Origin: Xylographa opegraphella
Lineage: Eukaryota
Length of the DNA: 64,000 bases
Direction: 5' to 3'
NCBI GenBank assembly: GCA_022813865.1
Contig: JALDZX010000022.1
Location: 1 to 64,000, forward strand
Notes under the pieces: generated by a model
What the model was told of the DNA's origin: nothing
Database searches by the model: none
Seen by the model: only the letters and a program-made list of their open reading frames with translations
Part shown: in pieces, positions 28,463 to 59,398 of the stretch
How the letters are laid out: the number at the start of each line of letters is the position of its first letter
Numbering within the stretch: position 1 is the stretch's first letter
Made by a program: the position numbers and the translations under genes

Positions 28463-28512
28463 NNNNNNNNNNNNNNNNNNNNNNNNNNNNNNNNNNNNNN
28501 NNNNNNNNNNNN
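28463..28512. other. Assembly gap (N run)
   Basis: Run of n characters. Confidence 1.
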
Positions 28513-33482: not shown

Positions 33483-36400
33483 TCAATTCCAACCTAGAGA
33501 GTTTTCTGCCATTACTGGAGCGCTGATGTTTTGTCGTCCAGAGCTGCCGCCGCTTCGACCGCTGCCTCTCGAGTCGCGCCCGCTGTAGCCATATGTGTCA
33601 TAATCGCCGCCGCTGTAGCCTCTTGCTCCACTCATTAGTGCCGTACCGGCACCGCTCCTGATCTCTCCATGGCTTTGCGACATACTCGATGTGTCAATCA
33701 GAGAGGGCGATCTGCGGTGAATTGAATTCCTCTTCCGGTATCTCTTGGCAACGAAGAACATTGCGGCACCGTAGAGCGCAGCGCCAGCAACAACCCCAAC
33801 ACCAATACCAACAGAAGCAGCTTTCACAGAACTCGAGTTGTCAGTACCCGCTCCTATTGGCGCGCCCTCGGTAACGACGGCACTGGCGGCGGATGTGGGC
33901 GAGCCAGTATTGCTTCCAGGATTAGCACCACCGAGATCACCACCAGCAAGAATCGGGAAGGAAGGATTGATCATGCTGACGAGAGTATTGACACTGTCGT
34001 TAGGGTTGTCGTACAGTGCACTGGTAGGCGTATGGATGTCAAGACTCAGATCATTGACGAAACTGGAAGGAATATATGCCATAGCTAGAGTCGTGACATA
34101 ACCTAGTGTAGCCGTTGTATCATATGGTTGAAGAGTCTGCATCGTGATGCTTGATACGTCGAGGCCAAGACCATATGCTAATCCCATGGGTAGATACGTG
34201 AACAGCTGATCTATTGATTTATAGTTTGAAACCACAAACTCGTAATTCAAGGGGAACAGAAAGCCGACCTGGACGAGAGTCGTGTTGTCCGGCTGTTGTG
34301 GGATTATACCACTAGGTGGGGCGACGACACGGGGCAACGCTGATGGAATCCCAGTAGGAGCGTTGGAAGCCGTGGAAGGCACGGGACTCGAGGCGGTCGG
34401 ATCGATAAATATGCTGGTAGGTAAGTACTGCGATGTAAGAGCATCTGATCCAGTAGGCACAAGGCTTGTTGGACCAGTAGTAGCAAATGAGACAACAGGA
34501 CTGATAGTGCTTGGGGCTGCGCTCTCAGATGCACTGCCGGAGACGACAGGCAATGCAGTGCCTGTGAGGGAACTCGTAAAAGTTGTCCCTGAGGCAGTGA
34601 TCACGGTTACATCAGATAAAGCTGATACAGATTCAGACGGAGACGAGCCGTTTGTGGTACTTGTCGCACTTGGCGGCACTCCGGTATCAGTGAGTGTACC
34701 AGAAATCTGTGAACCAGAGACCGTCGATGCTTGAGACACACTGCTTATAGCAGTCCCTCCAGAGATAGATCCCGAAGCGGTTGAAACCGGAACAGATACA
34801 ACTCCTGAGCTCAACGAGCTACTCCCACCAGTTATAGAAGCTCCCGGCAGGGTAGATCCGAAAGTATTGGTAGTAGAGGCGGGTAGGGCACTTATTAATG
34901 AAGAGCCAGTGACCCCACTAACGGTGCCGGTAGTGGCTGTTACGGAACCGGTGGGTGAGACTCCGATCGTGGAGATAGATGCACTCGCAGAAAGTATGAA
35001 GGACAGACTCACTGCAGTATCTGTCGATACAAGAGTGCCAGTCAGGAGGGTTCCAGAGGTCGTGATTGGTGGTATCACTACAGGGAGCGATACAGTTGAA
35101 CTTGCCACAAACGTGTCGGTAGGTATCGAGATCAGGGTCTCTGTTGGAGAAGATGTAGAAATTGGGATAATTTCAGTACCTGTATTAGTTGGCGACGATA
35201 CAGGAACAGGAAGTACCGAAACAGTTGTCGGCGCTGAACTCGGGATAGAAATTGTTTCTGTCCCAGTAGAAATATCAGTCGGCGTGAGAGTTGGAACTAT
35301 TGGTATCACGGTGGTGTCTGTTGGTGTAGGTAGTGGGAGTGACACAACAGGGGATGTTCCAGTCGGAGCAGAGATTGGCAGTGATACTATTATAGAGGTA
35401 TCTGTCGGGGCCGAAAGTGGGAGAGACACAACCACCGAAGTGTCGGTCGGGGCAGAGATAGGTAGTGATAAAACCACAGAAGTATCAGTCGGTGCGGAAA
35501 CTGGAGATATCACCACAGAAGTCCCAGTCGGTGCGGAAACCGGAAGGGATACTACTATAGAAGTTCCAGTGGGAGCAGAGACAGGAAGCGATATGACCAC
35601 AGACGTGTCAGTCGGAGCGGAGATTGGAAGCGATAGGACCACAGAAGTGTCCGTCGGAGCGGAGATCGGAAGCGAAAGGACCACGGAAGTGCCAGTTGGA
35701 GCTGAGATTGGAAGTGATATAACTAATGAGGTATCTGTAGACGCAGAACTTGGAGGTGGTATTAACGTGTCAGTTGGCGAAGAGCTTGGAATAGGTGCAG
35801 CTGTGGTGTCAGTCGGTGCAGAAATCGGAACCGGCACGACCGTATCTGTCTCCGTGGCAGTTGGGATGGGACTCGGTACCGGCGAGAGTGGAGTGTTAGT
35901 AGGCGCAGAAGTTGGGCTTGGTGTAGCCGTCTCCGTCGGAGCAGAGATTGGAACGGGCACCACAGTATCTGTTTCTGTGAGCGTTGGTAATGGCGCAGAA
36001 ACAGGAGCTGTTCCAGTAGGAAGCGGAGCAACAATGGACGACAATATCGACTGGATTATTGATGATAGTACCGAAGGAACTGCAGTTGGAAGATCCGTTG
36101 ACAAAGGAACCACCGAGGATATAGGCAGCGGTAATACTGTGTCGGTTTGCTGAGCACTCGTTGCATCGGAAGAAGCAGAGACAGGGACTACAGTCGGGAC
36201 AGAGCCTAGAGTTACCGAATCTGTGGTTGGAATACTCGCGGGAACCACTGAGGGGAAGATTGTCCCTGTAGATGTTCCACTAGGCGCAGCTGAAGCTGGC
36301 ACAGTGGGCGGGACACTTTGAGAAACCGATACACTATTCGATGGTTGAGACGAAGGAACAGCAGTATCAGTCGGGGGAGGCGGGGTAGGCGTATCTGGAG

Positions 36401-37196
36401 GTGTGTCCGAGGGTAATACTGTAGGTGTGGGTGTGTCCGAAGGGAGTACTGTAGGTGTTGGAGTGTCCGACGGGAGTACTGTAGGTATCACTGTGTCTGA
36501 GGATATTACTGTAGGTATCGCTGTGTCTGAGGGTAGTACTGAAGGTGTCGCTGTGTCTGAGGTTAGTACTGTAGGTATTGATGTATCCGTAGGTGTATCT
36601 GTTGGTAAAGGAGGAGCTACTGTAGGAGTCTCCGAAGGTTGAGCCGTGGGTGTAGGTGTAGATGTATCCGTAGGAGTGTCTGTTGGCAAAACTGTAGGTG
36701 TAGGACTGTCGGTCGATACATCTGTAGGCGTAGGTGTGTCCGTAGGGGTCTCCGTTGGCGGGGGAGGAGGAGAAATGGTTGGAGTGTCCGTTGGTACATC
36801 TGTAGGAAGACCTGGCGAGGAAAGCGGACTGGAAGTCGGTAATATATCTGAAGATTGCAAGGACTCCGTCGTATCGGAGATACTTGATACCAAACTGCTG
36901 AAGAGACTTTCGAGAGATGATGTATCTCGCCGCGAAGCCAGTGATGAATCTGGTTGATCTGCGGTTGTCACCGTATCAGGCAATGTTGCGGGAACGGAAG
37001 TCGGTGTCTCTGCAGGCGTTGATGCTGGTGTCGTAGTGTTTGAGAACACTTGACGCTTGACATGCCGGGGGAAGTAGTGCCTACGCTCCAGAGCCGTTTC
37101 CCGTGGTTGCGGAGGTACATTGAAACCGCATACTGGACCAAGGACAGACACAAACGCAAACGACGCCACGAGAGCATTTGGAGTGGTTCGGACCAT
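33483..37196 (-). CDS. MSB2: Signalling mucin, Msb2/Hkr1 type
   Basis: Signal peptide, long S/T/P-rich repeats, juxtamembrane VQVGFLFPLNYEFVV domain, one TM helix, and cytoplasmic tail ending ISAPVMAENSLGWN. Confidence 0.92.
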   Translation of the reverse strand: MVRTTPNALVASFAFVSVLGPVCGFNVPPQPRETALERRHYFPRHVKRQVFSNTTTPASTPAETPTSVPATLPDTVTTADQPDSSLASRRDTSSLESLFSSLVSSISDTTESLQSSDILPTSSPLSSPGLPTDVPTDTPTISPPPPPTETPTDTPTPTDVSTDSPTPTVLPTDTPTDTSTPTPTAQPSETPTVAPPLPTDTPTDTSIPTVLTSDTATPSVLPSDTAIPTVISSDTVIPTVLPSDTPTPTVLPSDTPTPTVLPSDTPPDTPTPPPPTDTAVPSSQPSNSVSVSQSVPPTVPASAAPSGTSTGTIFPSVVPASIPTTDSVTLGSVPTVVPVSASSDATSAQQTDTVLPLPISSVVPLSTDLPTAVPSVLSSIIQSILSSIVAPLPTGTAPVSAPLPTLTETDTVVPVPISAPTETATPSPTSAPTNTPLSPVPSPIPTATETDTVVPVPISAPTDTTAAPIPSSSPTDTLIPPPSSASTDTSLVISLPISAPTGTSVVLSLPISAPTDTSVVLSLPISAPTDTSVVISLPVSAPTGTSIVVSLPVSAPTGTSVVISPVSAPTDTSVVLSLPISAPTDTSVVVSLPLSAPTDTSIIVSLPISAPTGTSPVVSLPLPTPTDTTVIPIVPTLTPTDISTGTETISIPSSAPTTVSVLPVPVSSPTNTGTEIIPISTSSPTETLISIPTDTFVASSTVSLPVVIPPITTSGTLLTGTLVSTDTAVSLSFILSASASISTIGVSPTGSVTATTGTVSGVTGSSLISALPASTTNTFGSTLPGASITGGSSSLSSGVVSVPVSTASGSISGGTAISSVSQASTVSGSQISGTLTDTGVPPSATSTTNGSSPSESVSALSDVTVITASGTTFTSSLTGTALPVVSGSASESAAPSTISPVVSFATTGPTSLVPTGSDALTSQYLPTSIFIDPTASSPVPSTASNAPTGIPSALPRVVAPPSGIIPQQPDNTTLVQVGFLFPLNYEFVVSNYKSIDQLFTYLPMGLAYGLGLDVSSITMQTLQPYDTTATLGYVTTLAMAYIPSSFVNDLSLDIHTPTSALYDNPNDSVNTLVSMINPSFPILAGGDLGGANPGSNTGSPTSAASAVVTEGAPIGAGTDNSSSVKAASVGIGVGVVAGAALYGAAMFFVAKRYRKRNSIHRRSPSLIDTSSMSQSHGEIRSGAGTALMSGARGYSGGDYDTYGYSGRDSRGSGRSGGSSGRQNISAPVMAENSLGWN
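35330..35730 (-). repeat. Degenerate 39-bp (13-aa, SLPISAPTDTSVV-like) coding tandem repeats in MSB2
   Basis: About ten copies visible in the translation; synonymous positions have diverged. Confidence 0.85.
36380..36600 (-). repeat. 30-bp (10-aa, PTVLPSDTPT-like) coding tandem repeats in MSB2
   Basis: Repeating gtgtc(c/t)ga...tactgtaggt units on the + strand. Confidence 0.85.
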
Positions 37197-37267
37197 TTCG
37201 GAAGACTTTGTATATATATGGATACAGTAATTAAAGATAGTTGGTTTTGTAGAACGAGCGGTTCAAC

Positions 37268-41607: not shown

Positions 41608-42343
41608 TTGATGTTCAGAGGCGAGAACGAGTTCAATCAGCGGGCTGAGGCCAATCGTATCAGAACAATTCGATGCATCTATCCTTAACTCAGGAGATCT
41701 TTCAACTGGCAAAACACCCCACTAGAAATGCCCATACTTTAATATCAAATCTTTAGGAAGACGTAGGTACGTAGTACCTACACCTACTTATCCCCAAGGT
41801 CCTCTAAAGTGGTTCTTCATATTATCGCCCAATGAGACCCTTGGAGGTCCTTGGCCCAGAGAGCTGTTGGCGGCCCCGCCTACGTCATTGTGCACCTGTA
41901 TCCTAGCTTACCCTACCGAGCCTACCTACCACCTAACGCAGGTAGGTACCTTATCTACCTACCTACCTTGGGTATGCGACAACCGGAACAATCAACAAGT
42001 CAGGCGCGGTACAAGGGTAGGTAGTGAGTCGTGTCCAAGGGTCGGAGCTTCCGACTTCGTGACTGTGTCCATAGGTCTGGTGAAACACATTATTATCCAG
42101 TCTATCGTCTAGCTGGTCTCGAAAGTGATTCCTTCCAGAACTTGATTTCCAGCCACCTCAGCCCCCTCGTGATCCTTTTCCTAACGTTCAGAACTCCGCT
42201 TCAGCTTCTCGCATTTTGTTTCATTCCTCTCTCATCTTCTTCTACTTGATCGCAGGCTTTGATTCTGCCATTCTACCGATCGCTTGAGGAATTCCACCGC
42301 CTCAGAATTATTGGATGAACCATCGAGCTTGATCGCAGCTACA

Positions 42344-43376: not shown

Positions 43377-43823
43377 AATAGTTGCCAAGGATGGCAAAGC
43401 GAGCGTATGGAAAGGTAGATGAGCATAGGTCAATAAAAATTGCAATGAGAGACGTATGAGGTAGAGGACGATATTGTCCATAGGGGGACGGACCTATTCT
43501 AGGAAGCATTGCAAGGAGTTTTCTCTACTTCTAGTAGCCGTAGAAGTTCCAGGAGTGATGTACTCCTATTGAGGGGTCGAGAAGACCTTGCAGAATATCA
43601 GTATCACCATTAGTACATTAGATAATGAGCAGCAGTGTTTGAAAGCACAACAACGGTTGTATTGTTCCATGTCTAGGCTGAGCCGTGCTCCTGCCCCAAC
43701 ACTTATGTTAGCCAATGTCTTCCACAATGTCCATTTCTGGTAAGTTGAAAATCGTCTTCCCCGCTCAGTTGTTTGATGCATACAGAAATATATATCTATA
43801 AGATTTTGCTCGAACAAAACCAC

Positions 43824-43973
43824 GGGGAATTAGCGCAATGGTAGCGCGTGGCTCTCCTAGTACTCGGACGAAAGTCGTAGTCAAGCCAAGGTTGAGGGTG
43901 TAGGTCTTTCCTCAACTTTGATTTTACATTCCCCAGTATACTGATTTCCTACAGTCGAGTCCCTTGTTCCTCG
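43824..43973 (+). tRNA. tRNA-Arg(CCT) with a canonical intron (43860-43882) and a spliceosomal-type intron (43900-43954)
   Basis: Acceptor stem GGGGAAT/GTTCCTC, D-arm GCGC-AATGGTA-GCGC, anticodon stem TGGCT/AGCCA with CCT at 43856-43858, T-arm GAGGG-T|TCGAGT-CCCTT, discriminator G. Mature length 72 nt. T5 run at 43987. Confidence 0.9.
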
Positions 43974-44317
43974 ATATGTTGTCTTGTTTTTGCAGTTTTT
44001 GGGACTATTTGGCCTGCGTTGTGGGCGGAACACGGACCGCCAAAAACCTCGCTCGCTTGGATCGTCAGTTGATTGATGTCTGTCTCGTCAGTTTCTTTTA
44101 GCTCTCTTCGAGTTGCACTTTCGGATCAGATTATCGTTCCAGCATGCTGCGTGTGCTTAAGAATTTCACTTTGTAATGGTCACACAGTTGATCACGGGCA
44201 TACACATTCATGGTATACGTTGAAGCTACTGGAAGACTATTGAACAATAAATTGGCGCTAGCTTTTGTCCCAGGCATATTCTTATCTCCTCAATAAACTT
44301 GAGCATACCCCCGAACG

Positions 44318-45368
44318 ATGCCTTTCTCCCACCACAGTCATTCGGGTCAATTCTGCCTTCATGCGAAAGACGACCTGGAAGCCATTGTCCAAACGGCCAT
44401 CAGTAAAGGGATGGGGACTCTGGTCCTGACCGAGCACATGCCTCGGGACCAGGAGACGGACCTGTACCCAGAAGAGGTTGGTTCCTCGCCCACCATGAGC
44501 TCCGCACGCTGAGTGGGGTTTAGATCGAAGCTGGCAGCACGACGGACAGCCTGTTCAAGACATTCGACGACTACTACATCGAAGCAAAACGACTGCAGTC
44601 GTCATACTCGCTACAGATAGACATCCTGGTTGGCGTGGAAACAGACTGGATACGCCCATCTTCTGAGCAGCTTATAGGAAACCTCATAGAAAAATACAGC
44701 TTCGACACCCTGATCGGCTCCGTGCACCATGTCCATGGTATTCCCACGGACTTTGACCGGGAAACATACGAACGGGCTCGGGCGGTATCTGGAGGCACGG
44801 ATGAGATGCTCTACGCGGATTACTACGATGCGCAGCTGAAGATGCTGGAGGCAGTGAAGCCACCGATTGTGGGCCATTTCGATGTCATCAGACTTCTGAG
44901 CGATGACCCGAATGCGAGCATGAAGAAGCACGACGTGGTGTGGAATAGAATCTTCAGGAATCTATCCTTCATATCAAGCTACGGTGGTATGCTCGAAATC
45001 AACACGGCGGCACTCCGGAAAGGGATGGATGAGCCGTACCCGCAAGGCGAGGTCTGCCAGGTTCGTTGCCGATACGCTGTCGGGTGATTTGGATGGCTAA
45101 TGAAGCCCAGGAGTTTTTGAAGATGAACGGAGCGTTCGTCCTGTCGGATGACAGTCACGGCGTTGGTCAAGTGGGATTCGGCTTCACGAGGGCGGTGGAG
45201 TTCATGGAAGGTATAGGTGTCCGGACGTTGATCGTCCTGCAGCGGGGACTGATGACACGAGACGCTCGCTTCCGAGGAGTGTTCGGACGGCCGGTGCGTG
45301 TCCCAGACCTTCAGAAGAAGCATACGTTCTTCCAGGCTCCAGGCACTGCAGCAAACAGCCGGCCATGA
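44318..45368 (+). CDS. HIS2: Histidinol-phosphatase (PHP family); exons 44318-44476, 44524-45060, 45111-45368
   Basis: MPFSHHSHSGQFC, LTEHMPR, GSVHHV, VGHFDVIRL, EINTAALRKG, LSDDSHG. Confidence 0.94.
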
Positions 45369-47474
45369 GAGCCACATACCAGGATCATTATCAGTGGCCA
45401 GAACTTCCTTGCGATTGATGTGACGAGACTAAGACCAGCTATCCAGCGACGCGTTTCGGCAGATCCATTGTCGGAGCATTGTACCCAATCAACACGGTCT
45501 CGCGGTCGGTCTGGCTCAGTTGGCATGTGAGGTAAGTTGCTTGCAGCTTGGTAAGGTAGCGTATACCTCTTTCCAGCAGTCCCACAAGAGAAGGCCTAGA
45601 ACTCTGCGCGACGTCTGGGCAAAGAGGGGCAGAGAATAGAGGGGCCGAGTCCGAGAATAGCACCCCGCTTTTGCGACTCAGGTACCTGGAGAACGGGCCT
45701 TCGGAGGGACCGCCGCTAGCTTTCAGCAAAGTTGAATGAAAACCGAGACTGCGTCGATAACGACATCGGAGAAGGCGGCGGAGGTATCTTTGCTCGTCCT
45801 TTCGACGCTTCCTCTTTACGTGATCTGGTCATGAATCCTTACTGGACTAGCACCACGGGTTACAGCTGCCAGCACACAAAGACATGGCCATCGGTATCTA
45901 AGGTACTGGGATGAATTGATTGCGCACCATTCTTGCAGAGCTATCTACCACGATGACGAACTGCTCCCGTTGGATAGGGGATGAGCGTGGCCTTGGATGA
46001 TTGTCCGTAGCAGTTCCTCTCTCCGGATGTACCAGGGACCCAGTACGGCTGTCGTGTCACGGCCGGCGACGGGAGGATGCCGCATACTCAACCGCATACG
46101 CATTGCCGCTTCGGATGGAGGCGCATATGCATCTCCTACCTGAGCTACGGAAGGGGCAGTCGGGAGCAGAGCCTGATGGTCTCTACACCGAAGCCGGGTC
46201 AAGAGAGGCAGCCCCGTTGACGTTGATGACGGTCGGTCCCTCGAGATGCTCGCAGTGATCGGGGGCTCTGCGCATGCATCGTGACTGCTCTGGGGGCGTC
46301 GGTTCACAGCAGATCGAAGAACGGGCTGAAGATTGCTGTTGAGATTTCGTGTGGCGGCTGCAGGGACCAAAGTATCGACCTTCTACGATGGGCAAACCGA
46401 ACCTGGATCCTGTAATCCGGTAAGGTATCCTGTACGGAGGACTCCGTGGACCGTATCCTGTATCCTGTATTATTCAATCTAATGTACCACGTACAGTAGA
46501 TACATTAGGTACCTTCTGCTTCATCCTTCGCCCCTCTCCCGTCCGCCTTCCCGCCGCAGGTCAGTTCCTCCGACGCGGGCCCTGCCACCCGACTGATACA
46601 GCACCCCGGGAATGGATTATTCCATTTCGTAATATGAATGCCCTTGACCACGCCTCCACGCCAAGCGACGAAAGCTCTGCCTACTCGCTTCTGCTGATGT
46701 GCGTCTCGCTTGTGGTGGATCGAGCAGTGGAGCCAAGTGGGATGTGGCCCGCCCGAATCACCACTGGGTGCGTTTGCGGACTTCCATCATCCGTCCTCCG
46801 CAATCATCCTCCCCCCCCAAAAAAGAACACTACCCTCACACCAGCGAAGCAGTCTGAGCAACCAACATCCTAGACGGCATCCACTTCCTCTGCCCGCGTC
46901 CAGCGACCCCCCTCCTTCGTCCCACACGCCTCCCAAGGTCCCCAAAACCCACTGACTGTGGTCGTTGCATTGGCCACCTTCGCAGCCGGCTCACGGGAGT
47001 TGGCAGCCATCGCTGACAGGACCCCGTCGAGGACAGGCCTCAGACAGGCCTCAGTCAAGCTGAACGGCCGGCCTCTGCTCTGACACCACAATGGCGCACT
47101 CGTGCTCCACCGGGGGGAATAGGTCCCCATATTACCAATGTGACCTAGCTACCCACCATCACAAACATAAAGGTACATTCCTCCGAAGCTTGCCCCTCCT
47201 TCTCCACCCCTTGCTCGGAGCTGCAGTGAATTGACTTTGGCCTCCCCATTCACTTCGGCCGACTAACTGAAAAGACCTTAAAGATTCCCGGTCCTGCCGT
47301 ACATTGGCTTCGAAGTTTATTCGGCGACGAAGTCTCTTCCATAGCTGACATACCGACAACGTCGTCCTGCCTCGTACCAGGACCACCTTCACTTGAATCC
47401 ATACTCTCTGAGCTTGTTACCTTCGAGCTTCCTCTCCCGTTACTCAACGGGTATCACCTCGACACTTTTCCACA

Positions 47475-48368
47475 ATGGGTGTCACTCGGAAGGTTGTGAA
47501 ACCGGGCAATGGTGTGGACAGGCCGAAACCGGGAGACGAAGTCACTATCGAATATACGGGCAATCTCTACGACGAGTCAAAAGGCGCGAGTAACGACTAT
47601 CGGGGCAAACAGTGAGTCGTTCCCCCAGCACCGTTAATACGGATACTGGAGCAAACGAACAGGTTCGACTCTTCCGTCGGCCGCGGAGACTTCAAGACGG
47701 CTATTGGCGTTGGAAAGGTGATCAAAGGTAGCGATCTCCTCACCGGGTCCCGGGACATTGAAGCTGGTCTGACATGTGCAACACCAGGATGGGACGAGGG
47801 CGTTACGGATATGACTCTGGGTGAGAAGAGCGTCTTGACAATCTCAGGGTGAGTGCTCTCCGCCCACTGCTATTCCCGAATATTCTGCCACATGCTTGTT
47901 ATCTTTTGAAGTCGATTTGCTGATTGTTCTTATGTACTAGCGATTATGCATATGGCGACCGGTAAGCCACCCCCACGCCAGTTGCTGTTGGTTCTCCCAC
48001 GCAGCTCGTTCCCTCTTCCATATCACCTGCCGGAGTTAGGCGTCAAAGCACAAACCACTAACAGGGGTCAACCCGTTCCATAGTGGCTTCCCGGGTCTCA
48101 TTCCGCCGAACTCGACCCTAGTCTTGTAAGTGCTACCACGTCCTCACCGATCTTTCTACCAGGCCACAAGAGACCGAGGCTGTCTTCGGCGAAAATTCTT
48201 TACAGTTATGTTGTTGTGGCCTTGTCCTGCTAGCCAGCACGTGTGTGTCTCTGTCTTGTTTATTATCGTACAATTCTATTGCATTGAGCTATTTATGACC
48301 GAGGCTTGACTGACATTCATTCTCTTAGCGTGGTTGAGTTGAAAGGAATCGGCAAGAAGATGGCTTAG
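47475..48368 (+). CDS. FPR1: FKBP12 peptidyl-prolyl isomerase, 121 aa; exons 47475-47611, 47663-47727, 47788-47848, 47941-47961, 48084-48125, 48329-48368
   Basis: Spliced product MGVTRKVVKPGNG...YTGNL...QFDSSVGRGDF...GKVIKGWDEGV...[28 protein letters not shown]. Five GT-AG introns. Not in the ORF track because the exons are short. Confidence 0.93.
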
Positions 48369-51300
48369 ACTCACCGTCTCTCATGTGTGACTCGACCAAC
48401 GAACACGTGGGGCGGTCGGGACTACTTGCTGTACGTACGGCGTTGGGAGCCGCTGCCGGTAAAGCTTTACGACTTTCCTCACGCACACCTTTCAAGTTAT
48501 GACGACTCTCCTTTTGAATCAATCAGAAGAATAGACTGCTTGAGGTTTCCACATCGATGGATGACTAATGCAATCTTTCTTTCTCGCTGCACGTGAAGGA
48601 CTGGTAAACTCATATAACTTCGATGTTCACGGTTCACTATCTGCTTGAAGCAATCATACACGCAGATTGTTGTCGTGTGTCCTCTGCCATCTGCCCAACT
48701 GCGCCAAATTCATTCATCTTTCGAAGCAAACGTGATCTTTATGATCATGTGCATGGCTCTTCTCGGTTATTGTAATGACCGACTCACGAATCTTCTGCAT
48801 AATATCACCAATGCTCTCTTGTTCATTCTTGTCGTCTTCTTCCACTGTCTAAGTACCCATAATCATCACCGCCGCCATTCTGTCGTCTGTACAGCCGTTT
48901 CTGACTCCTAACTGCCTCTCAATCGTTGCAGCATTTGCCCTGCCAAGTATATCGGAAAGCTTGGTTCTCTCCGTGGGATACGCTCGCATAGTCAATGTCG
49001 ACCGGATTGAGCTGGGTTACGATTTCTTGTGTGAGGCGCGCTGATCACTCCGAAACGCTCCGTCTCTCGATGTGTCTTTTACACACTTCCAGATCATCAT
49101 TCCCATGCTTGCTTACTGTATTTTTCGTTTCCTCTCCGTTCACGGTGGTTCCGTCCGTGGTTTTCGAAGTGCTTGTCTCTTTCATGTGTGGGTTGCAAGA
49201 TTGCTTGTTTCATGGTATATATGAGTGTGGCAATTTGTATGGATGATATTGGCTTTTGGGCGTGGCGAGTAGCACCACCGAGCCGAAGGCAGAAGCGGGA
49301 TGGGATTTGCTCACCGTCATTGCGGCAGAACCACTAGCGCACCTTAGAAGTCTTCGCCGTATCAATTAGATCTTCCTGACGAAACAGTCGGCGGGGACTT
49401 CAACGCTGTTTTGTCCTGCGCGAGCGACCGGTCGAGACTTCCTTATCTCCGTGGCTTACGTTCCGTCTGTCGGCAAAGTCTACAGAACCAGAACCTTCTC
49501 GTGGATTATTGATACCACTTCATGCACTTGCGGCCCTTTACCGCAGCTGGAGGTAGGCAGCCGAGCACTACAAGGAAGCATCACCGGTATCTGCCGGCAC
49601 AACACTAGTGGAAGGAGGCAGGTGTTCGCGGGTAGCGCGTAGGTGAATGGGTACGATGGGGTGCTGTCTTTTATATGGTAGTCTGCCACGATTGCAGAGA
49701 AATACTGCTGTGGATGGGGGGCATGTGCTGAGGTTGGTTGTTGTACTAACCGGGTGGAAGTTGCATTGCAGTTGTGTGATTGGGGTTATACGATTTGCTA
49801 CGAAATGTGCTACGAGATCCAGCGCTTAGGGGAGTATATGTTGGGAGAATTGTTGCCGAACCTATTCACTCTGTCTGCTGCCGGACGGAGTGGCGTCCTT
49901 CCGTCAAATGCCGTGAACGCGAATCCGGGAGCGAAAGGTTTGGACAATGGCTATATAGAGAAAGGATCCCGAAGGCCTTGGAGAAGAGAAAGACAAAGAT
50001 TATCGGCCTGCGCAGGGGATTGCAGAGGAAGAGGAAGTGCTCGAATGAGGCCGAGATCACAAGGGCGGTACGTGGTCCGCAACTGGACCTTCGCAAATGT
50101 TATCGGACGCTGGCTCGACGATCCTCTGGCACACTATTTATCTTGGGGGTGTTACGTTTTGCACCTTGGTAATGGATTGTGATGGTGGTGATGAGCTTGG
50201 GGACCCTTTAGCAAGCAAGATATATCACCGCTCCTGGATGGCTTGCGCGACCTGGGTAGGTAAGTAGCGACAAGCGTACTGTCGTATAGTACGGACGTTG
50301 CGCTGGTGCGCTGGCCGCCAACCCGTTGCTAGAACAGCTTTCGATCACACAGAGCTGAAAACGCACCAGGGCGTGTGAGCCCAGAGGTCCAGTCTCGCTT
50401 TGTCGTGAGGACTTGATACCGATGGATGCGGCGAGGTTCTGATTACTTCAGCATGATCGTGTTTCTGCTCGAGCTAAGGAAGGATACAGAAGACTAGGTC
50501 GCTTTGCGTACGATTACCTAAACGTCGAAACGCGTCTCGGGTAGTATTTCTGGTGAGATGTGCCTGGATAGGAACGACGTCGTGGAGTGTTTTTATACCA
50601 GCTTTGGCTTGCGTGGGCTATCGAGCTTATCGAAGGACCGAGGAAAAATCCTGACGGAGAGGCGGTGTGTATAACGCGAACAAGGGAACAGTCGGCCATT
50701 TCTATTCATTTTATTGCTTTGGGGATTTGGGACTTATATCGGGGATGAAAATTTCTGGAGAACAACCGAACTCCCTGGGATGGGCATTGGCTCGCCGCTC
50801 ATGCCGAAAGAGATCTACCTACGTTGGATAGGATGCTCATACGCCTTTCTCGCCATTGCCAGGCTCAGGTGCTTTGCGGGTCTCGTGCAATGGATTACTT
50901 ATGACTTGGTAGTCGTTGGGTGGCCTACCTTACCTCGCGGATGGATTTCTCAGATGATAACGTGGTCGACTAGCATTGCTCGCTTTATCTTACTGGTATA
51001 TTAAGACTATAAAATGCTGAAGGAGTTTGATCTTCGTTCATGGCGAGGGATGCGGAGAAATGAGTGGCCCAGCAGCAGAAGATGGCTAATAGCGAGTTTG
51101 ATATGTATCGTCACCACATGCGATTCCCGCTGAATAAGCCCTTTACAAAGTACTGGCGCCGGTGGTTTCCTCCGGCTGGTGAAAAGAGAGCTATTTGGAT
51201 GTGGGCTTCGAACATGCGGCTGATGCGCGTATCAGTCGTGGATCTTGAACGCAGAACTTCTCGTGGATCTTTGAATGCAGAACTTCTTCTTTGCCGAGAC

Positions 51301-54300
51301 TCGAATCTCTCGGGTGCGCTTTTCTACCATACAGGATTGTCACTTTACCAATATATTCAAAAACGGCGCGGGGACTGCAAGTCACGGGTGAACGCTCAAT
51401 GCGCCAAAGCCAACGCACGTGTGCCCAGCTCAAACGGCAGAAACAACCGCCGCTGGAATCCCGTAAAAAAGATACATCACGTACCGAGCAATCTTTCTCG
51501 TCGGAAGATCTAGCGGGGTAGAAGCTCAGGAGAGCTTCGAACGCTGTCTTGTTCCTTCGCCAATGCCTTATTGTGTAGGCTGCATCAGTCTCGCACATAC
51601 AGGATTTTCAGCACGTATCATGAGACTGATAACGGCGAATATTTACTGCGCTGTGGAAACGACACGGTTGAGTCTCACGCCTTGGGCTCCGTCGTCTGGG
51701 CTGCGTTGACATTTTGGTAGCATTGTTGTACCCACCAGATTCATAACCATTGGAATTTTTCTTGATTCGCTAGGCTTCAACAACCAGGTATAAATATCGG
51801 ATCTGCTACTTTTCTCTATCCAAGTTGACCTCACCGGCTCTCTCGCCTTTAACTGTTTGGAATAACCTCATCTGTCCTTTTGCTTTTCACTTGTTACTTG
51901 GCCTTGTTCTCCAGACGGTCGGAAGGATCTTCTTACTCGGTATATAGCTACTCATGGTCGGCAAAGTTTTCGCTACAGCTTGTTGTATCGAAGATGCTCA
52001 CATGATATTACTTGGCTGGATACGATCGAGCAGGAGGGGCATCATATGACAGCTGTCTATATCAGAAGCCCCAATCAAAAAGTCAGCAACCCGGTGACAG
52101 CAGTTTCTTTCGTCACATTGACCTGAATATCCCACTAGTCATTTGCCGACTCCAGAAGGGAAAATCTGATTCAGGGCTCTGTCTCGGCCGATCGTCAGGT
52201 CATTCGGATCGATAACAAGCTCTGGACCCCGGCAGATGCGAAGAAGTACCGCTTGAGCTTTCGCACCTAGGTATGTTCGGTTGGTCAGGTACGAATTTCA
52301 CTCGTCCGTTTACCTATGGAGCCAAAGGTCCCAGTTACCCGTGTTCGACAGACTGTTTTGCCTTGGTACGTAGGAATTCAGGAGGACCATGAGCAAGTTA
52401 CATCCATCGTACATGATGGCGCGGCCTCAAGACGATGGAAGTCGCCCTCGCAGACTACAGCCTTATATTTGAGTATCATTACAGGTTCGCGTCAGTGCAC
52501 TTTTCAACTTATTTTTACGGCTGTTCATTCCAAGCAACAGTATATACATGTATATCATCATATGTTTCGTCATCAGACCAAGTGTAGACTATGGTTCATC
52601 CTTTATTTTGTCCGCTTGTGGATTGTCGTTGGAACTATTGAAAGCCTACCTTGACGCTGGTCTCTTTCTCTCGATGATATCGCTATATTTGCACCGGATA
52701 TAGTGCAGGTCAATCTATGTCGCAGAACACCAATTGCTCTCAACGAGACCATGCCAGGAGCGGATCTGATTCACGTTAGCAGAATAGATGCATTCATCGA
52801 ACAGCAGAAGTCGGTGGGTTTTCTAAGCCTGGCGATTAGCAAAACACTCGAATTCCTATAAAAAGCAGATCGTCTGGCCATAGCGTTCAGCCGTGCTATA
52901 AATTCCTTGGTAGTATCCAATAACTACAGTTTCATCAAACAGCGTCGAGGTTACGATACCTTCAACACCGTGGTGGAATATTTCAAAAAGCATAAATGTG
53001 CATCGCTACTAAGATCTTGCAGAGCACAATGAACTGGTAAAAAATTTAAAACGAATCGAAAGCAATCTCCGCAGGACACCGTGGGCAGTGAGAGTTAGGA
53101 TGGATGGGCAGTTGAGATCCATCAAGTCAACCATGAAGACCTACCAGACAACCGAGACTTCTCACAAGCCATTAAGGCCAACGTTTCCGAAAACCTAAGC
53201 TCAGCTCAGCTACTTACTGCCGTTCGACGACCCCACCTATCGGGTACCCTCTCCTCGGAGTCGCCACCGGGATGTACCCGACCAGCACGGTAAGCTTTGA
53301 CTGTACGCGGCGCATCAGACGATGTGTAGACCTCCACCGCACTGGGAACTTATCAATTGGACGTATGTTACCAGCAGGCTGTACACTGCTAACGACGAAC
53401 GGCTCTTTCTCATGAAGCACGAGACGGGTAGAGCTTGACTACACCCGTTGAGAGTCGAGGCTGTAAGGATATCTCCATTCGAAACCACTGCTTTAACCCG
53501 GGGGTAGATGTATAAGCCAGAGCACGATCAATGCAAAACAAGAAGGAGACAGCAGTGTTGGAACGGATCATAGAAGAGCGTGTACCTCGTTTTGAGCAAG
53601 CTGATGAGTTCACAGGAGACTGCCACTTGTAAAGATACAGGCGGATATGTTTTTCGCAACTGGCATTATGCCACAGCATTGGTACGACTATCAGGTTAAA
53701 GGAGACAACGAATCAACTGCCGAAGAAGACATTGAATCCGAAGCCGGGCAGGAAGCCACCAACTACAATGAAAACGGCATATGGGCTCAGTATAGATATA
53801 ACGTGGATTACTACGAGCCATACATCGACCATGGAAATGAAGCTACAGCAAACTTCACCGTCCCTAATTAAAATTATAGAGTTATTAAGTGCGGACTATG
53901 CAAGCGCAACTTTACCATTAAGAATGAACTTTACAGATATTCTCGCGAGGAAATATGGTCCAAGCCTTCAGTAATAATACCATCCAATCCTGCGGAAGTT
54001 ATCAAAATTTTGTTTTACCTCATCTAAGGATCAGGTCTTTTCATCTCATTGAAATCCCGACACAGTGCTACCATTTGTTGCGAAAATGCATACGTGGCAG
54101 ATCAGGAGCTCCATCGACTATTGAAACATACACGTGGACAATATGTCTCGGCAAGTGAATAGCAAATTCAAACAGAAAATGTGTTGGCGGGAAAACTTCA
54201 GCATATCGAGTTGAGACCGAGGAAACAATGGAGAAGCCACTGTTGTATATGCTACGAGCAATTTGAAGGCAATGAGTTGGAAACGGTGCACCTCAATAAT

Positions 54301-56496
54301 GGAGACAATACAGAAATGGTAAAAGACTCAAAAGAATGCTCCTCACTTAGCCTGGCGCCATGACGGAGGTCGGCCTGCTTGTCCTCGACGAGCTTCAGGA
54401 AGTACGAGGTGTCATGTCTGGTATGTTTTCTGTCTTGATGCATTTGATTGCCTGGTCTCGGTGACATGTCTTCACCGGTGCTACGGAGAAGCACTCGCAC
54501 AGCAGCAGAATCGTGTTCTTATCCACTATTGGAATCTTTAATACATACACAGATCGATTGGTTTGGGTGAAGCGATAAAAGCTTCGGTGAGGTTGCGAAG
54601 GGCAAGAAGGCCTACCAGAGCTTGCTGTTACTGTTGTCGAAGGGAAATTATATGTGCACAGGCTTTACCAGTCTTTTCTATATATATATGACTTTGTATG
54701 GCTTCTGATGGATAAGATCAATGTCTTTATTACTCAGCTACTCATTTTGAATCTACAGCTAGATGTGGGTTGACGCGGGTGCTGTCGATATCGATGGGAC
54801 CCCATTGCAGGCAAAGGAGTGGACTTGCCCCTTATGTATTCATGCTTCAAGTTGGTAGCCTATTGTATTTCCATGTGTTCATATTCAAGTGGGTGATCTT
54901 TTACATTTTCATATATACCATTCTGCGCTCATATGTCCATGCCTTTGAATCTTGATGTCACTTGTGATTATTCTGTCGTTCTTTAGAAGCACTCATATCT
55001 CCTGCACTCTTTATGTTGGATCTTATCTGGACCCTGGAAATCAATCCTACAACTATCTCAACCTCACCAGGCCCACGCGCTTTTCAAACTCGCCGAGCAA
55101 GTCCATAAGAAAATACACTTCATGACAACATCGTCATCATCCTATTAGGCTCAGTCAATAGAGACCGTGCTGTTCAGATGTGCCCAAGCAGCGTCCTGGG
55201 AACTCGTACTCGCTCTGTACACATACGCTCAATGAATACAACGATCTCAATGACCCGATCAAGATATCAACTTCCGCTTCGCAGCAGTCATATCCAGAGC
55301 TGTCAATAATACCATACGCTACAGACTATCAGCTTTTGTCGGCTTCGACAGACGCTTCCGACATCTGGGACGGGATGGACCGCCGTATCGGGCGGCTGTT
55401 CGGCGACACGTCCAGCGGAACACACACACGGCTGTATATAGCGCACGTCGCAAAGCATGGGCGCCTCCCCACGAGGAAGCTGGCGATAAAAATCGCCGAG
55501 AGCCCAGAAGAAGTAGTGCGACTTATGGAGGAAGCCCGGTTGGCAACCCACCATCCATACGTGCTCGACTGTGCTCCAGACAGCCAGAATCGCACTATCT
55601 CTCAGTTTAAAACCCTCATTCGGCTTCGTTCCAATGGTAGATTGGAGCAGGACACTGCGAGAATGCAGAAACCATGGCAGAGCGTGGCCAGACGCACAAT
55701 GTCACCGGTGGTCCGCCTACAAGAGTACACGAATCAAGTCTGGCATTGAACGGGGAGGACGACGGACTGCAAGCCGAGCAGAGTGGGATGTTCGCTTTGC
55801 AGAAGCAATTGGCCGAAACGTGTCGTGGAGACTTTCGCTGCAGCGCCGTGGCTTCCACGGGAGCGAGCGGTAAGGGCTCGGGGAGCTGCTGTGGGTACTG
55901 TAGATATACGTTTGAAGTGCTGGATCCATCTGCCGTACCGACTGAAGCGGTAGTGGCATCGTGAGCAGAAGCACAGGATGCTGAAGAAGCACAGAACGCT
56001 GAAGAAGACGACAACTTGGAGAAGGGGCGGATGAACATGAATGAAGCTACATATTCATAGGCGATCATGCCATGCAACGCTTCATCATCTTCTTGAACGG
56101 TTAGCTAAGACCAAAACTAGCAAGATAGACAGACACCTGGCACGACCAGATCAACGACCACGGCTTAACCCTCATATTTACAGTGTAGATTCGCAATGGC
56201 ATTACAAGTGCAACTGAACTTTCCGTCCAGTCAAAGCGCTACTTCATCACTGGGCGACTCGTGCTGCTTCAGAACAACAATAATGATTTCCATGAGATGC
56301 GTGATGTTCCAAACGCTTGAGTCGCCAATATGCCGACTGTTCAAATTCCAGGTCCACATCCGCTAACCCTCCTTGACAAGCAAAACGTCCGATGCCAAGT
56401 CACACTCCTCGCTAATATCAATACCCCAAGACAGCTGTATTCAACAAGCCACGAACCCAAGTCAAATCCAGCCCAAGAACATCGCGCCGCTGGCCG

Positions 56497-58569
56497 TCAA
56501 CATTTTAGTACCATCCCAACCCACCAGTCCACAAACTCTTGCAAGCCCAATTGCCTCGACGGCGTCCCTCCGATCCCAACGACCTCTTTCCCCAGGCCCT
56601 CTCTTTCCCTCCACTCCTTCTCCGCTTTCTCCCCAGCTCGCCGCACAATCTCATCCTCATTCTCCGCCCGATACAGATCGCACCTGTCGCACTCCCCACA
56701 CGTCCCGCCGGCCGGTCGGAAATGCTGGCAGAAATGGCGGTAACCCTCGCCTTCGCCATCACCGCCGCCTTCCTGGGCCTGCGCTCGAAGTATGATGTTC
56801 ATTTCGTCAGCTGGCTGTCGAATGACGTTTTGCGCGGCTGACGTCTTACGCCCGAGGCCTTGACGGCATATATAGCACATAGTGTACCCACAGACGCAAA
56901 CCATCTTGTTGCAGCCACTGTCTTTGACAAAGCCGAGGCCGCATCTGGGGCAGGTGCGTTTGAGTGCAGCGGTCCTAGCGGCTTCAACGGTCGTTCGAAG
57001 GGAGAGTGTTGCAGATTCATGGCACATGTGCGGATCCTGCCAAGGCTTGTGGCATTGAAGACACGAGGTACGAAGACAGGATGGTGAACGGCATTTGAAG
57101 CGAGAAGACAGGTAGGTCTTACGAGTTAGCTTGTCGCAGGAGTGATTAAGCAGCACCGAAGGCGCAGGGAGAGCAAACAGCCGTGCAAGAATGGCATATA
57201 GACAAAGCAATCCAAGGAAGTTGAAAGACACGGCAAGTAGAAGCAGTGTACGAACAGGCCGCGAGGTATTGAGACCCCAGCCAAGACTGTTAGAGAGATA
57301 GAGCTCATCAGCCTCGGCGTAGTTGCAAAACGGGCACCGCACGAGAGGAACTTGTGCTTTGATAAGCGCTTGATCGGCTAGACGTGACTCCAGCTTCTTC
57401 CACATCTGCACTCCCCCTTTGGCGCTATGACCGATCGCTCGGTAGGCGAGTTCGTGGGGTATGCAGCCGTTGCAAGGTATGGGATCTGTTGGAGCTAAAC
57501 AAGCTATCTGACCTCGGGTATGATCAATATTGAGACCCCATGATTGGCCGTAGAGTGCCTCTGAAACTGCATGCTGTATACAGTTGAAGCAAATTATATG
57601 GGTACCCGTCGTGCAAGTCGCCATATGCTCAAATGTCGTCTCTGAAAAGCAGCACTCGCACTCGTAAAGAGCACTGGCTTCTTCTGCCTCTTGCTCGTTG
57701 AGGAGGGTTGCAAGCTCAACATTGATGGCCTCTTGTGCTTGATGGCGCTTCTCAAGTAAAGGTTTCAAGATTGTCCTGTAAAGCTCAGAGTCAAGTTCCT
57801 TGTTTCCGCTTTCTCGTAGACTGGGGATCGGAACTGACCCCCCTTCTGCAGTTTTCGTCCAAATGAGCATAAAGTGTTTGTCTGATACTTCTTGCGCAGG
57901 CTTTCGCCACTTGAGCAAAAACGTAGAGAAGCTACTCCTCCAACTCTTGCTTGCTAGCCCTAGCAGCACCGGCCTCGAAGAAGTGTAGTAATGATTTTGC
58001 TCGGCCAAAACTCCGTCTACTGTACTTCGATTTAGGGCTTTAAACTCTTGATACAACACAGTCCTCACTGCTTGCTTGTAGTTTTCTGAGCGGAACAGTT
58101 CGTGTACAGGCACTTGTATCCTATCTCGGCCATCACCCACATCTCCTAGAAGCTGCCGGATCTCGGAGTACTGCTGCGGAGCGTCCGATCGAGTGTCCAG
58201 TCTATTGATGCGCCATCGGCTATTGACCCACTTGGCCTGGTGTTTGATCAACTGCTCCGCTACTATGTGCAGTCGGCTGTCTCCACTAAATGTACCAAGC
58301 ATCTCTCGAAAGACCTCAGGACGAACATTCGGAAAAATGTCGGCAAGCACGAGAAGGGCGTTGTTGAGGTCCGCAAGACTGGCGAATTTCCTGGGAGCCT
58401 GAGTGAAGACATCCCCGGCAGATGCCAGGACGGTCGAGAGCTCAGTACTGGCTGATCGGATGGTCTTAGGGACGGATGTACTCGAAGATGGGGAACGGAA
58501 TTGTCGTCGGCGGCTTTCAGACGGTAACTGCTCGTCTGAGCGAGAGGAGCGAAATGCGGCGAAGACCAT
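56497..58569 (-). CDS. RBR (RING-IBR-RING) E3 ubiquitin ligase with a CUE-like N-terminus (RNF216/TRIAD3-like)
   Basis: LADIFPNV (CUE-like), ECECCF...HIICFNC, RCPFCNY, SCLQCHKPW..HMC, CPRCGLGFVKDSGCNKMVCVCGYTMCYICR. First in-frame ATG at 58569. Confidence 0.9.
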   Translation of the reverse strand: MVFAAFRSSRSDEQLPSESRRRQFRSPSSSTSVPKTIRSASTELSTVLASAGDVFTQAPRKFASLADLNNALLVLADIFPNVRPEVFREMLGTFSGDSRLHIVAEQLIKHQAKWVNSRWRINRLDTRSDAPQQYSEIRQLLGDVGDGRDRIQVPVHELFRSENYKQAVRTVLYQEFKALNRSTVDGVLAEQNHYYTSSRPVLLGLASKSWRSSFSTFLLKWRKPAQEVSDKHFMLIWTKTAEGGSVPIPSLRESGNKELDSELYRTILKPLLEKRHQAQEAINVELATLLNEQEAEEASALYECECCFSETTFEHMATCTTGTHIICFNCIQHAVSEALYGQSWGLNIDHTRGQIACLAPTDPIPCNGCIPHELAYRAIGHSAKGGVQMWKKLESRLADQALIKAQVPLVRCPFCNYAEADELYLSNSLGWGLNTSRPVRTLLLLAVSFNFLGLLCLYAILARLFALPAPSVLLNHSCDKLTRKTYLSSRFKCRSPSCLRTSCLQCHKPWQDPHMCHESATLSLRTTVEAARTAALKRTCPRCGLGFVKDSGCNKMVCVCGYTMCYICRQGLGRKTSAAQNVIRQPADEMNIILRAQAQEGGGDGEGEGYRHFCQHFRPAGGTCGECDRCDLYRAENEDEIVRRAGEKAEKEWREREGLGKEVVGIGGTPSRQLGLQEFVDWWVGMVLKC

Positions 58570-58735
58570 CTTCTTAAGGATGGCTGGCGTGTGGGCCCTA
58601 CATGCTGCTGGGAGTGAAAGACAGCTCTGTCCTTTCAGTCGAGAAGAGTGTGTAGGTGCAAAGACCAAGCTATCAAACAAGCCTCAGTCAAATTTGTAAT
58701 AATATTGTAAAATAAGAACTCTCTCGCTTAAAACA

Positions 58736-58890
58736 GGCCTGATGGTACGAAAATACGAAATCGAGTTGAGTTTGTCTCTTTGCTGACAATTTGCACAGGT
58801 CTAGTGGTATGATTGTCGCTTCGGGTTCGCCTGAGTATCTTAGATACTTAGATTTGTGACAGGCCCCGGGTTCAAATCCCGGTCAGGCCC
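58736..58890 (+). tRNA. tRNA-Pro(CGG) with a spliceosomal-type intron (58745-58798) and a canonical intron (58826-58854)
   Basis: Acceptor stem GGCCTGA/TCAGGCC (perfect), TG|GTCTAGTGGTATGAT, anticodon stem GTCGC/GTGAC with CGG at 58822-58824, T-arm CCGGG-TTCAAAT-CCCGG, discriminator C. Mature length 72 nt. T5 run at 58897. Confidence 0.92.
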
Positions 58891-59398
58891 TGAATATTTT
58901 TGTCGTCATTCTCGATCGCGGTACGACGGCGGTACATGGGCACTATCGTCTTTATTCACTGTTGAGAACAATGTATGCACTCACTATAGCCAGACAATCG
59001 GTAACTTTTTGCCAACCTAAACCAAGCGACAGTCCTTCTTTGGGTAGAAATGCCTGGGCGTCTTGACGATACAGATTATTTACGATCCATCGAGCTTGTG
59101 GAAACATCAATCGATTACGCTCTATTGGTCGTTGTGAATAACATCTATTTGAACGTGCGAAATGTGCAGCGCAGAGACGTAGTTTCATACTAGATACCTA
59201 TCATAAGCTCCATACGCGACGTTAAGGAAATGGGGTATTTTAGCAATAGCAACACCAGGAAATGCCATATCAATACAGTGATGATTTCCGTAAGCCATAG
59301 TCCTTCCGTGAAGCACAATATCATCTGCGAGATTCAGCAATAGTCCTCTAAACCATGACACCGTAGCTCCAGTCTTCAATAATATCAACATGCTGTAA

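Follow-up and report, generated by a model that had tools for sequence, protein, structure and literature searches.

The first 64,000 nucleotides (nt) of contig JALDZX010000022.1 (forward strand; Xylographa opegraphella assembly GCA_022813865.1), a stretch referred to below as the window, contain two transfer RNA (tRNA) genes, one for tRNA-Arg(CCU) and one for tRNA-Pro(CGG). Each is interrupted twice: once by a canonical tRNA intron between positions 37 and 38, and once by an additional insert that has the appearance of a spliceosomal intron. A sequence-only reading of this DNA had described both genes as combining a 37/38 intron with a 54-55 nt insertion of the form GTA..CTGAY..CAG, a description that our coordinates confirm. 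The tRNA-Arg(CCU) gene, with promoter and terminator elements of the kind that RNA polymerase III (Pol III) employs, is laid out as follows.

43787..43801, plus strand: TATA-like upstream element, about -37 to -23 from G1, from a motif scan; function putative
43824-43973, plus strand: the tRNA-Arg(CCU) gene, G1 at 43824 and G73 at 43973, read from the sequence
43824..43859, plus strand: exon 1, positions 1-37, with an intact A box at 43831-43841 and the anticodon CCT at 43856-43858
43860..43882, plus strand: canonical 37/38 tRNA intron of 23 nt, with the anticodon-intron pair C32:G(-3)
43883..43899, plus strand: exon 2, positions 38-54, from sequence positions
43900..43954, plus strand: spliceosomal-type intron of 55 nt between T54 and T55 in the T loop, cutting the B box
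43955..43973, plus strand: exon 3, positions 55-73, from sequence positions
43987..44000, plus strand: two T5 runs, a Pol III-type terminator, from motif scan and sequence

The 55-nt insert has a GTAGGT donor, a CTGAT branch motif with its A at 43944 and a CAG acceptor, and its register, as read from the sequence, is unique, sliding being impossible. The joint is also fixed independently, because an intron-less Arg(CCU) gene from a related sequencing run (record 15 of run X3, see below) matches the joined exons 2 and 3. The stems, A box, anticodon-intron pair and terminator of the gene are all retained. When folded, the ends of the intron (43899-43953) are complementary over 5-6 nt, forming a short inverted repeat that was seen in a fold run with no control and may be due to chance; such a repeat may bring the splice sites together, or may hint at a transposon origin.

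The tRNA-Pro(CGG) gene has the same kinds of parts in a different order.

58697..58715, plus strand: A+T-rich upstream element, weakly TATA-like, from a motif scan
58736-58890, plus strand: the tRNA-Pro(CGG) gene, G1 at 58736 and C73 at 58890, read from the sequence
58736..58744, plus strand: exon 1, positions 1-9, from sequence positions
58745..58798, plus strand: spliceosomal-type intron of 54 nt between G9 and G10, cutting the A box
58799..58825, plus strand: exon 2, positions 10-37, with the anticodon CGG at 58822-58824
58826..58854, plus strand: canonical 37/38 tRNA intron of 29 nt, with a 9-bp hairpin and the anticodon-intron pair U32:A(-3)
58855..58890, plus strand: exon 3, positions 38-73, with an intact B box
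58897..58901, plus strand: T5 run, a Pol III-type terminator, from motif scan and sequence

Here the insert has a GTACGA donor, a CTGAC branch motif with its A at 58786 and, again, a CAG acceptor. The gene stands head to head with an IBR-domain gene on the minus strand, and a gap of 167 nt separates it from the first in-frame ATG of that gene, at 58569.

Standard tRNA finders had been predicted to miss genes of this kind, and those that we used do miss them: in the raw window no tRNA was reported by ARAGORN or, at the gathering score, by Rfam, and at a lowered threshold ARAGORN made 12 weak calls (scores 90-96.7), none of which was accepted. When GT-AG or GC-AG segments were removed in silico, exactly one of 74 removals in the Arg region yielded a tRNA (ARAGORN score 112.7); in the Pro region four of 63 did so, the best being removal of the 54-nt insert, at 110.4 as against 100.7-102.9 for the other three. 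Over both strands of the full window a tRNA resulted from three of 18,644 removals, namely at the Arg gene, at the Pro gene and, as a weak alternative, again at the Pro locus. A simulated control gave no tRNA from 459,758 removals across 25 windows, and 568 double removals within the window disclosed no additional tRNA gene. Exact GT-AG removal therefore restores a tRNA at both loci, as had been claimed, and once the introns are taken out both genes regain what is expected of a nuclear tRNA: a cloverleaf with the conserved residues and an anticodon.

The neighbouring genes of the window belong to ordinary fungal families in Pfam. Among them, a Gtr1 exon shares 97% identity with a cluster of proteins whose name comes from Xylographa pallens and 90% with Ptychographa xylographoides, and the host is, on sequence grounds, a lichen-forming ascomycete close to Xylographa. 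For comparison with the inserts we used nine messenger RNA (mRNA) introns modelled in three genes, two of the nine resting on homology gaps; the set leaves out HIS2 and a 60-nt in-frame intron of an FKBP-type gene, and it includes a doubtful 103-nt intron of a DUF1774 gene. These introns are 48-203 nt long (four of them 48-63 nt) and the tRNA inserts 55 and 54 nt, the distance from the branch A to the intron end is 8-37 nt in the former and 10 and 12 nt in the latter, and the GTAGGT and GTACGA donors of the inserts are like those of the neighbouring mRNA introns (GTGAGT, GTAAGT, GTAAGC, GTAAGA, GTATGT and GTACGT). The earlier statement that the inserts match the introns of nearby genes in size and signals is thus borne out, and both inserts have the donor, the CTRAY branch close to a YAG end and the length of U2-type introns. 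Such a combination is rare in the window: just 12 of 255,891 pieces of 54-55 nt from the window carry the signal set GTR..CTRAY..YAG. The two inserts, which sit at different positions (54/55 and 9/10), were said to be unrelated, and indeed their similarity to each other and to the rest of the window is limited to matches of 9-13 nt (E >= 0.14). The idea that the introns arose as copies of other sequence in the window gained no support.

Contigs of three DNA sequencing runs (X1, X2 and X3) were aligned to window positions 43500-59300. Those of X1, which is possibly the source of the window itself, are identical to it at both loci, with 0 differences. An orthologue of the Pro gene is present in X2 (record 12; 226 nt, depth 4.49), where it covers 58727-58890 with 21 differing letters and 2 gaps. 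The 16 of these 21 differences that can be placed comprise nine in the GT-AG intron, seven (together with both gaps) in the canonical intron and none in an exon; within the reported zone, 9 of 41 GT-AG intron bases have changed versus 0 of 33 exon bases (Fisher p = 0.0035). The insert keeps its 54-nt length and its CAG, the branch motif has gone from CTGAC to CTAAC, which is a better branch site, and the hairpin of the canonical intron contains two compensatory pairs (58836/58846 and 58839/58843). The Pro gene is evidently under purifying selection. In X3, record 19 matches 58796-58826, acceptor CAG included, and is probably a second carrier of the 9/10 insert, and record 17 contains parts of both genes, IBR and Pro, spaced much as in the window, so the IBR-Pro neighbourhood is conserved. 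A Pro gene lacking the 9/10 insert also occurs (X2 record 13).

The Arg counterparts are of another kind. Record 15 of X3 is an Arg(CCU) gene with neither intron, in which 43823-43859 is matched with 4 differing letters and the loose end, compared by eye, agrees with exons 2 and 3 of the window at 28 of 30 letters; record 7 of X2 is a further Arg counterpart without the T-loop insert. The sequence-only reading had pointed to orthologous loci as a place to look for conserved splice signals, and such signals were found for Pro, whose X2 carrier keeps a branch motif (as CTAAC) and the CAG, and not for Arg, both of whose counterparts in X2 and X3 are without the insert. The canonical intron of Arg(CCU) is variable too, being absent from X3 record 15 and shorter in X2 record 7.

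The arrangement recurs outside the window. We searched with a pattern open to every tRNA, provided that a GT..CTRAY..YAG insert lay at 54/55, so that recurrence at this position is partly by design, and retrieved five loci from metagenomes (L001-L005), five out of five being tRNA genes. The same pattern returned nothing from 596 billion bases of prokaryote genomes and nothing from viral contigs, and a scan of viral contigs with the 9/10 pattern of the Pro gene likewise returned nothing. Three of the loci are placed as follows.

L001, near 540-735: tRNA-Pro(UGG) gene at a metagenome locus
L003, 2990-3190, minus strand: tRNA-Pro(UGG) gene at a metagenome locus
L005, about 1548-1745: tRNA-Ala(UGC) gene interrupted at 15/16, 37/38 and 54/55, with a G3:U70 pair and an acceptor-stem mismatch at 6:67

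All five are invisible to ARAGORN until their introns are cut out, and all five hold a second intron, GTAAG..CTAAT..YAG, in the D arm, which the pattern did not demand; at every locus, the best of 40-52 removals for this intron is the one with GTAAG, CTAAT and YAG. L001-L004 are tRNA-Pro(UGG) genes with introns at 11/12, 37/38 and 54/55 (two spliceosomal-type and one canonical), and none of their 72 mature positions varies, versus 20 of the 111 columns of the two GT-AG introns. The gene next to L003 finds its best named matches in Pleosporales (86% to Decorospora, 85% to Pyrenophora), which belong to a different class from the window fungus. A 12-nt block with TTAGTCA, lying about 25-13 nt upstream of G1, is invariant among L001-L004 while its flanks diverge; it may be an upstream promoter element, and we take it to resemble an AP-1-type site.

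The feature is real, conserved and recurrent. We consider it likely that both window genes are functional tRNA genes in the nucleus of a lichen-forming ascomycete and have been invaded by ordinary U2-type spliceosomal introns. Among known machines only the spliceosome agrees with the signals of the inserts, and these tRNAs would probably need the mRNA-splicing machinery besides the usual tRNA enzyme. That two machineries might share in tRNA maturation had been proposed beforehand; the splice signals, the restored cloverleaf, the Pro orthologue and the recurrence all support it, with the excision as a prediction. In the pathway that we envisage, Pol III would transcribe each gene by means of the remaining internal box and the upstream TATA-like element and would stop at the T5 run. 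The GT-AG intron would then be removed by the spliceosome, with a lariat formed at the branch A; this step should come first, because an insert at 9/10 or 54/55 prevents the L-shaped body from forming. Afterwards the ends would be processed by RNase P and the 3' nuclease, and the 37/38 intron would be dealt with by the tRNA splicing endonuclease and the ligase, such that a single RNA would be spliced by two unrelated machines in an obligatory sequence. Passages of one review describe the four-subunit endonuclease as reading the folded body and cutting 37/38 introns only (PMC10485636), and in the parts of two reviews on which we draw, nuclear tRNA splicing is treated as the work of proteins alone, distinct from that of the spliceosome (PMC10485636, PMC10275265). 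Recruitment of the spliceosome might, as a guess, be helped by capping, since a section of the latter gives yeast pre-tRNAs as capped 5-22% of the time. The introns themselves would have been gained independently at different positions, as fungal U6 introns were.

More broadly, and with less confidence, we favour the view that filamentous ascomycetes of at least two classes (Lecanoromycetes, and Pleosporales for L003 and its relatives) possess an unrecognised class of tRNA introns, namely spliceosomal introns gained repeatedly at many positions, with up to two per gene beyond the canonical one. The spliceosome would then be required in tRNA maturation, acting on Pol III transcripts with a split internal promoter, and annotated tRNA sets would be systematically incomplete.

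Several points weigh against this interpretation. The excision of the GT-AG inserts is predicted from DNA alone. The X2 orthologue of the Pro gene is a single contig whose depth lies under the caution level of 5, and five of its 21 differences are unplaced, presumably within about 30 nt of its ends, a region that includes the donor GT. No orthologue with the Arg T-loop intron turned up in X2 or X3, the two counterparts found there lacking the insert, and L001-L004 are so closely related that they count as one event. On the sense strand, no B box with at most one mismatch occurs in the Arg intron or in the 250 nt downstream (the A and B boxes being judged by consensus motifs); Pol III transcription of the Arg gene is unexplained by standard rules, because its B box is cut and has no replacement. 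Finally, in budding yeast the C34 tRNAs for AGG and CCG are replaceable by wobble of U34 tRNAs, and both tRNAs of the window may be dispensable in this way, so that their loss need not be costly.

That each insert splits a promoter box (B in Arg, A in Pro) is the main open problem of the mechanism, and it leaves neither gene with a contiguous A and B box. An alternative that competes with our first step alone, and is counted within the interpretation above, is that RNA polymerase II (Pol II) makes the precursors, which would be capped and spliced like mRNA before the tRNA is cut out; transcripts could come from divergent transcription at the IBR-gene promoter in the case of Pro, and from read-through or an own TATA promoter in the case of Arg. 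Its attractions are that each window intron cuts a Pol III box and that both boxes are cut in L001-L005, and that the Pro gene lies head to head and close to the start of a protein gene; moreover, as reported in part of PMC2943599, tRNA-Sec in trypanosomes is made by Pol II. Against it, a run of at least five T residues lies 6-26 nt past the 3' end in seven of seven genes (Arg, Pro and L001-L005) and in none of them inside; the B box of Pro and the A box of Arg are perfect; and the capping of yeast Pol III pre-tRNAs noted above (in part of PMC10275265) implies that a cap needs no Pol II. The cut boxes themselves leave weaker traces: at the 3' junction Pro still has an A-box match with one mismatch, and L001-L004 (four of four) preserve two one-mismatch matches, one to the A box that spans the donor and one to the B box within the T-loop intron. 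A one-mismatch B box is found in the T-loop intron of L005 as well and no B-box match in either window intron, but matches of this quality are common by chance. TATA-like words occur upstream of four of the seven genes. We prefer Pol III with upstream help, and judge Pol II to be an unlikely source that is nonetheless a real rival.

A second rival, to which we give a rather low probability, is that at least one of the two genes is silent or dead, the insert having broken the promoter of a dispensable C34 tRNA gene whose decay is still ahead. For Arg, the broken B box has no clear substitute and no intron-bearing orthologue was found in X2 or X3, and the wobble redundancy mentioned above applies to both genes. 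Against this reading, both Pro introns have diverged, with compensatory pairs, next to exons that have not changed, and Arg retains its A box and terminator as well as its stems and anticodon-intron pair. In seven long open reading frames AGG accounts for 47 of 266 Arg codons, and CCG for 75 of 369 Pro codons; the metagenome examples, moreover, are tRNAs of the U34 type whose exons do not vary. Nor was a second copy of either tRNA gene found among the six aligned X1 records, which is a weak argument given that other Pro tRNA genes also failed to align. The pseudogene reading is more open for Arg than for Pro, because Arg combines a broken promoter box with the lack of an intron-bearing orthologue.

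We regard it as very improbable that the tRNA endonuclease excises the inserts as non-canonical introns at a bulge-helix-bulge motif, as in archaea and some red algae, with the GT-AG ends a coincidence. Non-canonical intron positions are known in some eukaryotic tRNA genes, according to part of PMC10485636. The motif, which consists of a 4-bp helix set between two 3-nt bulges and flanked by helices, does not form at the inserts, however: the central helix has three of four pairs in Arg and 0-2 of four in the four Pro registers, and flanking pairs number 0-1, for which reason we reject this kind of cutting. Full splice signals, rare as they are among window pieces of this length, are present in both window inserts and in five D-arm inserts. 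An assembly artefact or a chance cloverleaf has a negligible probability and is excluded by the agreement with X1, the Pro arrangement in another organism and the empty controls in simulated windows, prokaryote genomes and viral contigs.

Two older observations on fungal non-coding genes are close to the present case: Bhattacharya and colleagues reportedly described spliceosomal introns in ascomycete ribosomal RNA (rRNA) genes in 2000, and Frendewey and colleagues are said to have found, in 1990, a B-box-like sequence inside a U6 intron. The latter has a parallel in the B-box-like word in the T-loop intron of L001-L004. The U6 RNA of Schizosaccharomyces pombe (Tani and Ohshima 1989; surveyed by Canzler et al. 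2016) is presented in passages of a review (PMC5855946) as a Pol III transcript spliced by the spliceosome, and the same passages extend spliceosomal introns to fungal U6, U1, U2, U5 and rRNA genes; in Pezizomycotina, the subphylum of the window fungus, part of a further paper reports introns in U3 genes of most members examined (PMC5832005). Like the fungal U6 introns, those described here are short, have canonical donor, branch and acceptor, reside in small non-coding genes of Pol III type, are unrelated in sequence, and occur at many positions, several per gene. Unlike U6, the tRNA host is not part of the spliceosome, and reverse splicing at the active site cannot therefore explain the insertion; the tRNA precursor also needs an endonuclease, the introns cut the A or B box of their own gene, and the Arg intron of the window has no B box. 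The U1, U2, U5, U3 and rRNA cases share with ours the gain of normal spliceosomal introns by fungal non-coding genes, but none involves a tRNA host or a second, endonuclease-type intron.

Canonical 37/38 introns, of which each window gene owns one with its anticodon-intron pair, differ from the 54- and 55-nt inserts in position, the latter being extra and lying at 9/10 and 54/55. The bulge-helix-bulge introns of archaea and red algae resemble the inserts in occurring outside 37/38 and in making genes that standard finders miss, but the inserts have GT, a branch site and YAG in place of that motif. The literature searched, mostly outside subscription papers and with supplements excluded, yielded no spliceosomal intron in a tRNA gene. 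The mechanism of the inserts has its precedent in U6; as a kind of tRNA intron, they are undescribed in the literature searched.

Splicing of these introns would tie the supply of tRNA to the mRNA-splicing machinery, and would mean that one small RNA is handled by both systems in an obligatory sequence. These genes are natural substrates for asking whether Pol II, capping or long exons are required by the spliceosome, the first exon of Pro being 9 nt plus leader and the last exon of Arg 19 nt plus trailer, and they also bear on transcription when an A or B box is cut and on the entry of introns into non-spliceosomal genes. Because ARAGORN and Rfam miss such genes, errors may have entered counts of fungal tRNAs and studies of codon adaptation. 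The Pleosporales cases are culturable, which makes these questions testable without lichen cultures.

Some further features of the window lie away from both tRNA genes or concern their neighbours. An FKBP-type gene at 47475-48368 has five introns, one of which (47728-47787, 60 nt) is in frame and stop-free, such that its retention would add 20 residues, and a second, similar stretch is present in X1 (record 2). At 55257-55371 the X1 contigs break and depth rises, pointing to a small repeat of which another copy lies elsewhere, and short TACC/GGTA-type repeats are clustered at 41760-42030, upstream of the DUF1774 gene. A scaffold gap of 50 N occupies 28463-28512, distant from both tRNA genes. 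The minus strand carries an open frame of 1259 codons that matches nothing in Pfam, at 33483-37262, and a HET-domain gene at 24160-26013.

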